26,529 nucleotides of DNA from a virus, in the UHGV virus genome UHGV-0097687; one strand, given 5' to 3'. Below are positions 1,876 through 16,407 of the stretch, in pieces. The notes beneath the pieces were generated by a model that saw only the letters and a program-made list of their open reading frames with translations, had not been told where the DNA came from and did not search any database. A program made the translations under genes and the position numbers. Every line of letters starts with the position of its first letter. Position 1 is the first letter of the stretch.

Positions 1876-2475
1876 ATGCGTAAATTATGTGCAGCCATTT
1901 TGTCCGCAGCCATCTGTCTGTCCGTATCCGGTGCGCCTGCATGGGCGTCTGAACATCAGTCCACACTGAGCGCGGGGTATCTTCATGCCCGTACGAACGC
2001 TCCCGGCAGCGATAATCTGAACGGGATTAACGTGAAATACCGTTATGAGTTTACGGACGCGCTGGGGCTGATTACGTCCTTCAGTTATGCCAATGCTGAG
2101 GATGAGCAAAAAACGCACTACAGCGATACCCGCTGGCATGAAGATTCCGTGCGTAACCGCTGGTTCAGCATGATGGCGGGGCCGTCTGTACGCGTGAATG
2201 AATGGTTCAGCACGTATGCGATGGCGGGCGTGGCTTACAGCCGTGTGTCGACTTTCTCCGGGGATTATCTCCGCGTAACTGATAACAAGGGGAAAACGGA
2301 CGATGTGCTGACCGGAAGTGATGACGGTCGCTACAGCGACACGTCTCTGGCGTGGGGGGCTGGCGTGCAGTTTAACCCGACCGAATCCGTGGCCATTGAT
2401 ATTGCTTATGAAGGTTCCGGCAGTGGCGACTGGCGCACTGACGGTTTCATCGTTGGTGTCGGTTATAAATTCTGA
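1876..2475 (+). CDS. lom: Lom-like outer membrane beta-barrel protein (Ail/Lom/OmpX family), lysogenic-conversion moron
   Basis: 199 aa with signal peptide (MRKLCAAILSAAICLSVSGAPAWA), ends in aromatic residue (..GYKF); position after J as in lambda; GAGAGG RBS; flanked by terminators. Confidence 0.82.
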   Translation: MRKLCAAILSAAICLSVSGAPAWASEHQSTLSAGYLHARTNAPGSDNLNGINVKYRYEFTDALGLITSFSYANAEDEQKTHYSDTRWHEDSVRNRWFSMMAGPSVRVNEWFSTYAMAGVAYSRVSTFSGDYLRVTDNKGKTDDVLTGSDDGRYSDTSLAWGAGVQFNPTESVAIDIAYEGSGSGDWRTDGFIVGVGYKF

Positions 2476-2501
2476 TTAACCAGGCAACACAGTGTTATGA
2501 C

Positions 2502-2528
2502 AGCCCGCCGGTTCAGGCGGGCTTTTTT
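2502..2528 (+). terminator. Intrinsic terminator after lom
   Basis: AGCCCGCC / GGCGGGCT stem followed by TTTTTT. Confidence 0.7.
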
Positions 2529-2539
2529 GTGGAGTGGAT

Positions 2540-4603
2540 ATGGCAGCAGTAAAAATCTCAGGTGTGCTGAAAGATGGTGCGGGAAAACCAATACAGAACT
2601 GCACTATTCAACTGAAGGCAAAGCGTAACAGCACCACGGTACTGGTGAACACGGTGGCCTCTGAAAATCCTGATGAAGCCGGGCGTTACAGTATGGACGT
2701 TGAGTATGGTCAGTACAGCGTCATCCTGTGGATTGAGGGTTCTCAGCCATCACATGTTGGGACCATTACCGTCTATGAAGGTTCCAGTCCGGGGACGCTG
2801 AATGATTTTCTCGGTGCCATGACGGAAGATGATGTCATGCCGGAGGCATTGCGCCGTTTTCAGGAAATGGTGGAGGATGTGGCACGCAACGCTGAAGCCG
2901 CCTCTCAGAGCGCAGCGGCAGCAAAGAAATCAGAAACAGCAGCGGCATCGTCCAGGAACGCGGCGAAAACATCAGAGACGAATGCAGGTAACAGCGCGAA
3001 AGCGGCAGCTTCTTCAAAAACAGCCGCACAAAACGCAGCAACAGCGGCAGAACGTTCAGAGACAAATGCCCGTGCGTCAGAAGAAGCCTCCGCAGACAGT
3101 GAAGAGGCTTCCCGCCGTAATGCAGAGTCAGCCGCTGAAAATGCCGGAGTCGCCACCACAAAAGCGCGGGAGGCTGCAGCAGACGCAACAAAGGCCGGGC
3201 AGAAAAAGGATGAGGCTCTGTCGGCAGCGACACGAGCTGAAAAGGCGGCAGACCGCGCAGAAGCCGCAGCGGAAGTGACTGCAGAGCCCTATGCGAATAT
3301 AGTGCCGCCGCTGCCTGATGTGTGGATACCGTTTAACGATTCACTGGATATGATTGCGGGTTTTTCTCCGGGCTATAAAAAAATAGCTATTGGTGACGAT
3401 GTGGTTCAGGTCGCCAGTGATAAACAGGTTAATTTCAGTCGCGCATCAACGGCAACATATATCAACAAATCTGGCGAACTGAAAACGGCGGAAATTAATG
3501 AGCCGCGATTTGAGTGTGATGGCCTGCTTATTGAGGGACAAAGAACGAACTACATGCTCAATTCGGAAAGTCCAGCCAGCTGGGGGAAGTCATCAAACAT
3601 GGATGTGCCCGAAACCGGGAGGGATAGTTTTGGTTTTACTTATGGAAAGTTTGTCTGCAACGATTCTCTGGTTGGGCAAACTTCGGCTATTAATATGGCA
3701 TCAATTGCTGCAACAAAGTCAGTTGATGTCTCAGGCGATAATAAATACGTGACAACCTCATGTCGCTTTAAAACAGAACTGCAGGTAAGGTTGCGAATCC
3801 GGTTTGATAAATATGACGGAAGTGCAACAACTTTTCTTGGCGATGCGTACATTGATACGCAAACGCTTGAAATTAATATGACAGGTGGTGCTGCCGGCAG
3901 AATTACGGCACGAGTCAGGAAGGATAAGACCACGGGCTGGATTTTTGCAGAGGCAACGATTCAGGCAATTGATGGTGAGTTAAAAATAGGCTCTCAGATA
4001 CAGTATTCTCCTGAGAAGGGTGGGGCAACAGTATCTGGTGACTATATTTATCTTGCCACCCCACAAGTAGAGAATGGGCCGTGTGTATCATCATTTATTA
4101 TTTCAGGAGGCAGCGCAACGACAAGAGCCAGTGATTTGGTTAGTATCCCCACCAGAAATAATCTTTATAAGTTACCATTTACTTTTTTACTTGAGATTCA
4201 TAAAAACTGGGATATTGCACCAAACGCCGCACCCCGCGTGTGGGATATAGCAGCAGCCAATACCGGGCAATCAGCAATTGCAGCAGTCAACAGAGGTAGT
4301 GGTAAGTTATATATGAGTCTGTCAAACCCTTCAGGCTCGTATGTTAATAGCGCAGCGACAGATGTATTTGCAGAGAAAACCACATTTGGATGTATTGCAA
4401 AAGCTGATGGTCACTTTCATGTGGTGACAAATGGTAAAGCGGTTAATGAAGTTTATTGTGAATATAATGGCGTGACCGCTGATAAAAATATCCGATTTGG
4501 AGGGCAGACGAATACTGGAGAACGACATCTGTTTGGCCATATTCGCAATTTCCGCATATGGCATAAAGAATTAAATGACAGGCAATTAAAAGAGGTCGTA
4601 TGA
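2540..4603 (+). CDS. stf: Side tail fiber protein (Stf-like) with conserved N-terminus, Ala/Ser-rich repeat stalk and divergent C-terminal lectin-like (LamG-type) domain
   Basis: ATG at 2540 with GGAG RBS; N-terminus MAAVKISGVLKDGAGKPIQNCTIQLKA..GRYSMDVEYGQYSV matches remembered lambda Stf; low-complexity SETNA/AAAS repeats 2880-3280; C-terminal ..NIRFGGQTNTGERHLFGHIRNFRIWHKELNDRQLKEV resembles LamG_3 terminal motif. Confidence 0.82.
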   Translation: MAAVKISGVLKDGAGKPIQNCTIQLKAKRNSTTVLVNTVASENPDEAGRYSMDVEYGQYSVILWIEGSQPSHVGTITVYEGSSPGTLNDFLGAMTEDDVMPEALRRFQEMVEDVARNAEAASQSAAAAKKSETAAASSRNAAKTSETNAGNSAKAAASSKTAAQNAATAAERSETNARASEEASADSEEASRRNAESAAENAGVATTKAREAAADATKAGQKKDEALSAATRAEKAADRAEAAAEVTAEPYANIVPPLPDVWIPFNDSLDMIAGFSPGYKKIAIGDDVVQVASDKQVNFSRASTATYINKSGELKTAEINEPRFECDGLLIEGQRTNYMLNSESPASWGKSSNMDVPETGRDSFGFTYGKFVCNDSLVGQTSAINMASIAATKSVDVSGDNKYVTTSCRFKTELQVRLRIRFDKYDGSATTFLGDAYIDTQTLEINMTGGAAGRITARVRKDKTTGWIFAEATIQAIDGELKIGSQIQYSPEKGGATVSGDYIYLATPQVENGPCVSSFIISGGSATTRASDLVSIPTRNNLYKLPFTFLLEIHKNWDIAPNAAPRVWDIAAANTGQSAIAAVNRGSGKLYMSLSNPSGSYVNSAATDVFAEKTTFGCIAKADGHFHVVTNGKAVNEVYCEYNGVTADKNIRFGGQTNTGERHLFGHIRNFRIWHKELNDRQLKEVV

Positions 4604-14838: not shown

Positions 14839-15201
14839 TTAACGACCTGCTGCGCGGAGTTTTCCGTCAGGTTCACCGGCAAGAGTCAGTAATTGTCCCT
14901 GGTCTTCCTGCAGAATAGTCAGGCGACCACCGCGATTGACATACATCGGCGTTTCGGTGGTGTCTTCTTCGGAAATTTTCCCGCGGTTAGTCGGGCGAAC
15001 ATATGAGAGTTTGTGTTTGATTTTCACTCGGTTCTCATCAAACGGTTCGATTTCCAGATTGAGTGAGACCTTACCTTTGGTTTTCGTGTTCATCACACCG
15101 GAAGCGACTTCACTGAGAACTGCGCCGATTTTGGTTTCAAATACGCCGCCGTCCAGCTCCCCGATAAATGCCTGCACATCAGTACTGCGTTCGCTAGCCA
15201 T
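14839..15201 (-). CDS. Hypothetical protein, YfdP-like; first gene of leftward early operon
   Basis: Start placed at ATG 15201 with GAGGAG RBS (120 aa, MASERSTDVQAF..); upstream 60 codons of the tracked ORF lack RBS. Confidence 0.55.
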   Translation of the reverse strand: MASERSTDVQAFIGELDGGVFETKIGAVLSEVASGVMNTKTKGKVSLNLEIEPFDENRVKIKHKLSYVRPTNRGKISEEDTTETPMYVNRGGRLTILQEDQGQLLTLAGEPDGKLRAAGR

Positions 15202-15245
15202 TTTGCTGCTCCTCATCATATCGACCCTGCAAGGTCGGTTAGTTT

Positions 15246-15342
15246 CTCCACAAAACAGAGAAGAACACCTGCGGTGGCAGCCGCCCGGATGGATTGGGTT
15301 ATGAGCCCGTCGTCCGGTGATGCTCTTCTCTGTTTTGTAAAA
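15246..15342 (-). promoter_or_regulatory. Structured leader of early-left transcript (15-bp perfect inverted repeat enclosing a GC-rich roughly 60-nt insert)
   Basis: ACAAAACAGAGAAGA (15250-15264) pairs with TCTTCTCTGTTTTGT (15324-15338); lies between operator region and first early-left gene. Confidence 0.4.
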
Positions 15343-15543
15343 AGAGCGGTACCAGCCGGAAGCAAGTGTACAAACTGGTACCGCCAAAGCAGTGGCTGTT
15401 GTGGTGACCGGTGCTGATCTCCGGCTTGCGGTTATTTCAGACTCTCACGGGCGTTTAATTGCCCCGCCGAACAGCTCTTTTCCGCAATAGCTGCAATGTC
15501 TTTCGCGCATCAGCCTGCGCATTCACCACAACTCTAAAAACAA

Positions 15544-15596
15544 ATGTAGGATATCCAACATGTAGGTGTCAAGAGTTTATGTTGGTTATCCTACAT
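15544..15596. promoter_or_regulatory. Left operator region (OL) with two 18-bp repressor-type sites, presumed leftward early promoter
   Basis: ATGTAGGATATCCAACAT (15544-15561) and ATGTTGGTTATCCTACAT (15579-15596); same palindrome family recurs at OR. Confidence 0.6.
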
Positions 15597-15612: not shown

Positions 15613-15638
15613 AAAAAAACCGGGGATACCCCGGTTTT
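15613..15638 (-). terminator. Bidirectional intrinsic terminator downstream of the repressor gene
   Basis: AAAAAAA-CCGGGG-ATA-CCCCGG-TTTT. Confidence 0.7.
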
Positions 15639-16303: not shown

Positions 16304-16310
16304 GTTCATC

Positions 16311-16374
16311 ATGTAGGCAATCCTACCACATGCCAATGTAGGATTCTTGACATTGGCATGTTGGATATCCTACA
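16311..16374. promoter_or_regulatory. Right operator region (OR) with three repressor-type sites between repressor and cro-like genes
   Basis: ATGTAGGCAATCCTACCACAT (16311-16331), ATGTAGGATTCTTGACAT (16335-16352), ATGTTGGATATCCTACAT (16357-16374); the third is the reverse complement of the OL site. Confidence 0.6.
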
Positions 16375-16407
16375 TTCCTGCTTGACGTAATTTAACGGGA
16401 GACAGAA

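Follow-up and report, generated by a model that had tools for sequence, protein, structure and literature searches.

A conserved structured non-coding RNA in the leader upstream of yfdP in a lambdoid prophage of Escherichia coli

Organization of the early-left region

The window, i.e., the whole stretch of 26,529 nucleotides that we analyzed (UHGV virus genome UHGV-0097687), is part of an E. coli lambdoid prophage, and copies of the region that are 100% identical are present in several complete genomes; E. coli MS21324 carries such a copy. The leader under study runs on the minus strand from ~A15535 to the yfdP start codon at 15201, and is most likely the untranslated 5′ part of the early-left transcript (from PL) in a lambdoid prophage of the SfV/mEp460/ST64B type, which lacks N. 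The early-left operon on this strand begins with yfdP, followed by yfdQ (DUF2303), a 5′-deoxynucleotidase gene, a gene encoding a DUF551 protein, a 71-aa open reading frame and, last, int; since this operon is short and has int at its end, one checkpoint in the leader would suffice. The plus strand encodes Cro, a CII-like protein, an O-like protein and a Q-like antiterminator. The features of the region, from right to left, are as follows.

16347-16376: PR, the mirror image of PL, identified by consensus scan
16336-15659, minus strand: cI, encoding a LexA/S24-type repressor
15616-15638, no strand assigned: bidirectional terminator after cI, a perfect 10-bp inverted repeat (AAAACCGGGG/CCCCGGTTTT)
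15543-15572, minus strand: candidate PL promoter, -35 TTGACA at 15572-15567 and -10 TACATT at 15548-15543 (consensus scan, 10 of 12 matches)
15397-15534, minus strand: module A, a structured RNA (model R1, covariation) beginning ~3 nt after the predicted PL start
15338-15385, minus strand: predicted intrinsic terminator/attenuator, a 13-bp GC-rich hairpin (15345-15385) followed by UCUUUUU (15338-15344)
15250-15338, minus strand: module B, an 89-nt hairpin with a stem of 20-25 bp formed by an inverted repeat (fold and covariation)
15243-15249, minus strand: purine motif GGAGAAA, immediately 3′ of module B
15222-15237, minus strand: small GC hairpin (CGACCUUGCAGGGUCG) between module B and the ribosome-binding site
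14839-15216, minus strand: yfdP with its Shine-Dalgarno sequence GAGGAG (~15210-15216), coding region 15201-14839 (PHROG and Pfam matches)

Both PL and PR consist of TTGACA, an 18-nt spacer and TACATT, and both are located among 18-bp operator repeats (15543-15596 and 16310-16376), with PL embedded between the operator inverted repeats at 15544-15561 and 15579-15596. The transcript start at ~A15535 is predicted solely from promoter spacing. The bidirectional terminator lies just upstream of OL/PL, and forms the right-hand boundary of the PL region; at the other end, the yfdP start codon at 15201 is supported by alignment with 14 homologues. The leader is richer in GC than the window (0.526 vs 0.458), and the predicted fold of the whole leader RNA is more stable than expected (z = -5.1).

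In a comparison set of 80 loci encoding YfdP homologues (one genome per species), the elements are arranged identically in many genera, with module A first, followed by an intrinsic terminator, a long hairpin, GGAG(A/U)AA, a small GC hairpin, and the yfdP ribosome-binding site. BLAST against phage genomes demonstrated mosaic joints with other phages at 15535, 15406 and 15387, which are the module borders; homology breaks exactly at these borders, and the modules are swapped as units. The shared homology extends up to 15535, the predicted transcript start, in mEp460-type and Stx2a phages, up to 15406 in cdtI and Stx2c phages, and up to 15387 in SfV. The leader is a conserved, structured and functional non-coding RNA on the minus strand, made up of module A, the terminator and module B. 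In the CPS-53 prophage of E. coli K-12 (locus L213, 3400-3600), only the last ~20 nt before yfdP are retained, and repeated GATTTTGACGGGTCAGA-like units are located upstream of yfdP beside a truncated yfdO; PL, module A, the terminator and module B are therefore gone, and data from K-12 are uninformative for this leader.

Module A has a near-invariant scaffold and a hypervariable insert

Module A is composed of three helices and one insert, all on the minus strand.

15524-15532 paired with 15399-15407: helix P1
15505-15520: hairpin P2 (GCGCA-GGCUGA-UGCGC)
15426-15504: hypervariable insert
15408-15425: hairpin P4 (GCCGG-AGAUCAGCA-CCGGC)

Our covariance model of this element (R1) identifies module A with 79.7 bits (E 6e-17), as a single copy in the window. 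Across 24 family members, helices P1, P2 and P4 contain 93.7% standard pairs and six pairs change on both sides, values that none of 500 shuffles reached. The loops of P2 (GGCUGA) and P4 (AUCAGC) are complementary to each other, and this loop-loop pairing (GCUGA/UCAGC) is kept in 99%, yet hardly varies. The excess of G.U pairs over A.C mismatches is modest in module A (18 vs 8), and the stability of module A on its own is unremarkable (z -1.8). The scaffold is near-invariant and the insert hypervariable: in prophages of Serratia, Kosakonia and Rahnella, where YfdP identity is only ~60%, the identity of the 5′ block GUUGUGGUGAAUGCGCAGGCUGAUGCGC and of the 3′ block GCCGGAGAUCAGCACCGGUCACCACAAC reaches up to 100%.

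Searches for a known RNA at this position were negative. No Rfam 15 family reached its gathering score in the window, and relaxing the cutoff to E up to 10 yielded nothing within 15202-15543; over 20 related loci, the Rfam matches were only tRNAs and the IS1222 frameshifting element (IS1222_FSE). A tRNA/tmRNA scan identified neither in the window, and strings of the module A sequence had no match in the literature searched by sequence. The Pas sRNAs described in a preprint were considered as a candidate and rejected, as they are late-region sRNAs and a different element.

A predicted intrinsic terminator follows module A

The earlier note on this DNA missed a second inverted repeat (15346-15355 with 15375-15384), which is followed by UCUUUUU and is located 11 nt downstream of module A. 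A GC-rich hairpin (15345-15385) and then a U tract on the transcribed strand are the two parts of an intrinsic terminator, and termination is predicted here. The hairpin folds with -21.2 kcal/mol (z -4.1), and none of 200 shuffles was as stable. A terminator of the form GGCGG...CCGCC(C)UUUUU is present at the same place in ~40 of the 52 distinct yfdP leaders, representing many genera.

In 26 distinct relatives, a strong Shine-Dalgarno sequence (GGAGG or GGGGAG) and AUG-UUC are present inside the terminator loop (for example, at ~2330-2360 of locus L038, and in four further loci). The open reading frames that begin at this AUG range from 2 codons (“MF*”) to more than 60, and there is no conserved peptide. 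A ribosome positioned at the AUG-UUC of the loop would cover the 3′ arm of the terminator, so that translation may relieve termination in those phages. The terminator in the window has a short loop, with neither a Shine-Dalgarno sequence nor AUG-UUC.

Pairings that involve the terminator region were also noted. When the whole leader is folded at minimum energy, CUGCUUU (15384-15390) pairs with GGAGCAG at the yfdP Shine-Dalgarno sequence (15209-15215). A candidate antiterminator pairing of 11 nt between the module A insert (15471-15481) and the terminator tail (15340-15350) was rejected, as it is not conserved in SfV; the same complementarity is also not kept where the 136-nt module occurs in P1 and IME207.

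Module B is a long hairpin whose pairing is conserved

The earlier note had described a perfect 15-bp inverted repeat around an insert of ~60 nt, and this is confirmed: 15250-15264 (ACAAAACAGAGAAGA) is fully complementary to 15324-15338 (TCTTCTCTGTTTTGT), with a spacer of 59 nt. No other perfect 15-mer inverted repeat in the 26.5-kb window has arms separated by 100 nt or less, and 200 shuffles produced none. At 84% pairing, the arms can be lengthened to 25 nt (15250-15274 with 15314-15338). Module B, the hairpin that results, folds with -49.7 kcal/mol (z -7.0), and its stem has 20 continuous pairs, or 24-25 with the extension, which is within the length range of RNase III substrates (at least 20 bp). 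RNase III cuts double-stranded stems of 20 bp or longer, i.e., about two turns.

Module B starts directly after the U tract of the terminator, as it always does in relatives, and is located ~50 nt before yfdP. Our set of homologues comprises 35 distinct hairpins from Enterobacterales, including Escherichia, Serratia, Yersinia, Providencia, Morganella and others, and in these 93% of the 20 basal positions are paired; exchanging arms among the 35 hairpins as a control gave 53 ± 4% paired, with a maximum of 68%. The stems are wholly different between lineages (e.g., ACAAAACAGAGAAGAGCAUC, ACACAUCAGGUAGCGCACUG, ACAGAUAAGGCUACUGAUAU and UACAAAUAUAAGUCCACCGG), and hairpins at this position range in length from 40 to 116 nt. 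The covariation analysis across related prophages that had been proposed as a check thus found the pairing of the inverted repeat kept in 35 distinct versions. These homologues contain 52 G.U pairs and 7 A.C mismatches, and this excess of G.U over A.C shows that it is the yfdP-sense RNA that folds.

The apical part of module B carries GGGCUCAUAACCC (15297-15309, minus strand), which we take to be identical to the anticodon stem-loop of the E. coli initiator tRNA. Further downstream, almost every Enterobacterales locus has (U)GUGGAG(A/U)AA at 35-55 nt before the yfdP start, and in the predicted fold GGAGAAA can pair with the U tract of the terminator. Relatives contain a small GC hairpin of different sequence in the same place as the one at 15222-15237. 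In four Proteus yfdP loci, several copies of GTGTGAAGAGA, the Proteus version of GTGTGGAGAAA, are located 200-650 nt upstream of yfdP, and one of these loci (L060) contains three copies 13 nt apart; in loci from Yersinia, Xenorhabdus and Providencia, a second copy of GTGTGGAGTAA is located 380-690 nt upstream.

N, nut and put elements are absent

We observe no Arg-rich N-like protein, as the earlier note had stated: six-frame translation of the leader gave neither an ATG-initiated nor an Arg-rich open reading frame, and the first gene of the PL transcript is yfdP. The description of the leader as free of open reading frames also essentially holds, in that the transcribed strand contains no ATG-initiated frame, and the TTG- and GTG-initiated frames of 47-51 aa are not Arg-rich. 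True N genes were recognized by Pfam in other loci, so this test is able to detect them. The gap between cro and the CII-like gene is 27 nt, which leaves no room for nutR, as was previously noted. The boxA consensus (YGCTCTTWA) had no pattern matches in the window. The sole boxA-like string, CGCUCUUUUUACA, was discarded, being the tail of the terminator and not kept in SfV.

A second covariance model (R2) was constructed from seven put RNAs (HK022 putL and putR, HK639, phiEt88, CobraSix, UPF_BP1 and S9-5) and used with filters off. This model recovers putL with 96.6 bits, HK639 with 89.9 bits and putR with 47.6 bits, and finds nothing in the leader, the best matches in the window being at E 3.5 and outside the leader. 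Model R1 likewise identified no second copy of module A behind PR in the window.

Module A is also present in phages that possess antitermination systems. In N-encoding lambdoid phages, it is located between nutL (boxA and a boxB-like hairpin) and the start of N, with the downstream open reading frames identified as N by Pfam; in three of these loci and others, module A caps the long hairpin between nutL and N, on an outer stem (GGCUUUGGGG/CCACCAAAGCU). In the Salmonella phage S9-5, a weak look-alike of module A (17.7 bits, with P1 and P4 clear) follows putL; this diverged element (GUGCGGUGAAAUGC...CCGGGAAGAUAAGCAACCCGGCACCGCAC) is at 185-248 of the locus (L212) from this P22-like phage, directly after the putL-like RNA. 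Since module A coexists with nutL/N and apparently with putL, it does not replace these antitermination systems. What this analysis establishes is the presence of the three structures, the strand to which they belong, how they are conserved and covary, and the lack of N, nut and put.

Module A represents a widespread phage RNA family

Searching viral contigs for the exact pattern located module A in at least 120 loci. Among the matches listed, there are at least 83 distinct versions, in which the inserts between the conserved blocks are unrelated from version to version, and the whole module ranges in length from 69 to more than 200 nt. BLAST identified module A in 137 phage records, many of them from Klebsiella and E. 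coli phages, and including P1, the P1-like phage RCS47, the siphovirus IME207 and the N4-like phage IME11. In addition, R1 identified copies in 25 yfdP loci, where all those with E below 0.5 are on the yfdP strand and each leader contains one unit. An intrinsic terminator is present within 150 nt downstream in at least 34 of 81 distinct instances of module A, compared with 34 of 342 random positions.

Many of these copies have tRNA genes as neighbors. Among the matches listed in viral contigs, all 21 tRNA genes located within 1.5 kb of module A are co-oriented with it. For example, tRNAs adjoin module A in IME207 and IME11, and in RCS47 R1 identifies four co-oriented copies just after tRNA-Asn and tRNA-Thr. 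The occurrence of module A in tandem beside tRNA genes in these phages is as expected of a processed stable RNA. At 2420-3320 of the RCS47 locus (L204, NC_042128), the four copies and intervening “X” hairpins form an array on the same strand as the tRNAs, and the opposite-strand Plp and Upl annotations over this array may represent a mis-annotated RNA array. In P1, copies of module A lie under the “plp” and “upl” protein annotations.

Module A alternates in a large number of other phages with a second hairpin type, the X hairpins (GGUAAGAGCA...UGCUCUUUCC). Their cargo includes tRNA-like pieces, and in E. coli-type leaders a relationship to these hairpins is visible in module B. The sequence ACGGGyUCAUAwCCCAAUC recurs as X-hairpin cargo in unrelated phages (loci L101, L199 and, at ~3130-3160, L204), including the P1-like one. 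The insert of module A in locus L184 (~1860-1940) contains the tRNA-like sequence GTAAGCTCAATCGGTAGAGC...GGTTCGATTCC, and a Rahnella locus (L049, ~2170-2260) contains a second, partial module A start that carries a T-arm-like piece, GGGTTCGACTCCC. Judging from such sequences, the variable arm of module A can evidently hold tRNA-like cargo.

A third conserved hairpin, CACAACAGGUAAGAGCAUU...CAGUGCUCUUUCC, usually precedes module A, for example in seven IMG/VR loci, 100 nt upstream of the module. Its 3′ strand resembles the rrn boxA (UGCUCUUU). Often only a few nucleotides separate its start from the terminator of the gene before it, and often it is itself preceded by a CUCCACGAAACGGAG hairpin.

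We conclude that module A is a widespread, covarying phage RNA family that is contained in no database or paper that we searched.

Proposed function of the leader

Our favored reading, which we hold tentatively and at a little less than an even chance, is that the leader is an attenuator followed by an RNase III-type processing station, and not an antiterminator. Transcription from PL would first yield module A, with its closing helix, its two hairpins with potentially kissing loops and its variable insert. The terminator 11 nt further on would stop most polymerases, giving an RNA of ~200 nt that consists of module A and the terminator hairpin. Polymerases that read through would next make module B, the stem of which (20-25 bp) is typical of RNase III substrates. 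Either cleavage by RNase III or the hairpin itself, acting as a 5′ structure, would then part the 5′ RNA from the yfdP-int message, and would set the stability and translation of that message. The net result would be low, buffered early-left expression and a separate small structured RNA. In this scheme, the efficiency of termination, cleavage by RNase III, the ~200-nt RNA and any function of module A in trans are what we infer.

Some observations fit this reading poorly. The Shine-Dalgarno sequence and AUG-UUC in the terminator loop of relatives point to ribosome-dependent read-through, the near-invariant scaffold of module A suggests a specific partner that attenuation and processing leave unnamed, and the conserved GGAGAAA falls outside this account. 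We also identified in the window no device that would allow int expression on induction past an efficient terminator.

For module A itself, a broader role is conceivable, and we give it an appreciable chance while leaning against it. Module A may be the first representative of a class of phage non-coding RNAs not described so far, in which a near-invariant, tRNA-elbow-like scaffold displays a hypervariable “cargo” arm. Such an RNA would be released as a discrete stable species from early transcripts or tRNA clusters (in enterobacterial phages as different as lambdoid, P1 and N4-like phages and siphoviruses). Its target would be a conserved host factor, reached in trans, for which it might serve as a decoy or guide, rather than the transcript that contains it; tRNA-fragment-like cargo, for instance the initiator-tRNA-like loop GGGCUCAUAACCC, would be displayed by the X hairpins, module B among them.

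It is unlikely, in our estimate, that module A is a sensor (a riboswitch, or an aptamer that binds a protein or tRNA) with the terminator 11 nt downstream as its expression platform, so that a ligand or host factor decides read-through. A conserved structured domain closely followed by a terminator is what such a device would look like, aptamers typically combine a conserved core and a variable peripheral arm, as module A does, and in N phages the module adjoins the N ribosome-binding site, a possible translational platform. However, no conserved alternative pairing between module A and the terminator was identified, the 11-nt complementarity being lost in SfV, P1 and IME207; tandem copies among tRNA genes are unlike a riboswitch; and Rfam gave no match.

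The earlier note had suggested that the leader is a cis-acting antitermination or regulatory RNA. The second part of this suggestion is supported, in that the leader is a conserved, structured, non-coding RNA in which the repeat covaries; the first is not, given the terminator in the leader and the negative result with the put model. Moreover, the repeat is located downstream of the terminator and so cannot be what suppresses it. Module A could instead be the antiterminator, a put analogue that binds polymerase such that only PL transcripts pass the leader and later terminators, and we regard this as distinctly improbable. The phage has no N, nut or put, yet has a strong terminator between PL and int; module A is at the very 5′ end of the transcript, as putL is, and elsewhere precedes terminators significantly often; and a near-invariant scaffold would be expected of a contact with the host machinery. 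Against this, module A has no match to the put covariance model and no sequence resemblance to put, it has no copy behind PR, and it would be redundant after nutL in N phages and, as the weak look-alike, after putL in S9-5. In addition, four tandem copies beside tRNA genes in a P1-like phage are unfit for a polymerase modifier, and the hypervariable insert is left unexplained.

A role at the DNA level, as recombination “linkers” at mosaic boundaries or as sites for DNA-binding proteins, with the RNA structures incidental, is very improbable. The mosaic breakpoints at block edges, the conserved flanks around unrelated inserts, reminiscent of cassette exchange, and the GTGTGAAGAGA repeats spaced 13 nt apart in Proteus loci are all compatible with it; the orientation is tied to transcription, however (21 of 21 tRNA genes among the matches listed, and all yfdP loci), compensatory changes preserve pairing, and G.U pairs outnumber A.C mismatches, greatly in module B and modestly in module A.

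That the leader is protein coding, either as an N-terminal extension of YfdP from TTG 15387 or as a small leader peptide, is scarcely credible: the reading frame of yfdP remains open over the 62 codons before its start, the PHROG 204 profile is longer by 17 N-terminal positions and the terminator loops of relatives contain mini-ORFs behind a Shine-Dalgarno sequence, but homologues share the Met at 15201, which a strong Shine-Dalgarno sequence precedes, the hairpin lengths of relatives are not multiples of three and so break this frame, the stems change completely and stay paired, and the mini-ORFs encode no conserved peptide and have no counterpart of their motif in the window. An AlphaFold2 model of YfdP of modest confidence (pLDDT 66) gave no meaningful fold match and no hint that the protein binds its own leader. 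The probability beyond all the readings considered here belongs to something not yet conceived.

Significance

A 2025 survey of LLS-type phages offered a put-like mechanism for early-left control as a guess only (PMC12315714). For early-left control in lambdoid phages without N or put, the leader described here offers a concrete design, i.e., a 5′ RNA, an attenuator and a processing hairpin. Leaders that combine an attenuator with an RNase III-type hairpin are already known as a kind of device. The module A family is large and strongly conserved, and is present even in the textbook phage P1; if module A does act in trans, it would represent a new type of phage-host RNA interaction, and the annotation of many phage genomes would be corrected.

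Comparison with known systems

Put RNAs (~70 nt, two stems) cause read-through of terminators in cis via the zinc-binding domain of the beta-prime subunit, and put sites are located behind both PL and PR. The leader resembles the put systems of HK022 and HK639 in that the PL transcript of a lambdoid phage without N begins with a structured RNA, and putL of an N-less phage likewise lies just downstream of PL (PMC9378689). It differs from them in that there is no sequence or structure match and no copy at PR, and in that a conserved terminator follows 11 nt on.

In lambda, the hairpin of the N leader, between nutL and N, is an RNase III processing site and modulates translation of N. Module B shares with it the place in the PL leader and a long double-stranded stem, and the lambda N leader shares the outer stem GGCUUUGGGG/CCACCAAAGCU with N-encoding relatives that bear module A. 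Unlike in lambda, the leader contains neither nutL nor N, module B is a separate hairpin past a terminator, and the gene served is yfdP. Model R1 found no module A in lambda or HK022, so the link to lambda consists of position and the shared outer stem.

The CI RNA of P4 and the c4 RNA of P1/P7 are small structured immunity RNAs derived from the leaders of early transcripts that end prematurely. The leader described here would likewise yield a small structured RNA from the 5′ region of a prematurely terminated early transcript; in contrast to these systems, it has no match to the Rfam C4 family or any other Rfam family (E up to 10), and no complementary target sites were identified in it.

The pyrBI leader is a classical intrinsic-terminator attenuator with ribosome coupling. 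As in attenuators of this type, a conserved intrinsic terminator is located in the 5′ leader, and the loop in many relatives has a Shine-Dalgarno sequence and AUG-UUC; the differences are that the loop in the window is short, with no Shine-Dalgarno sequence or AUG, and that the peptide encoded in relatives is not conserved.
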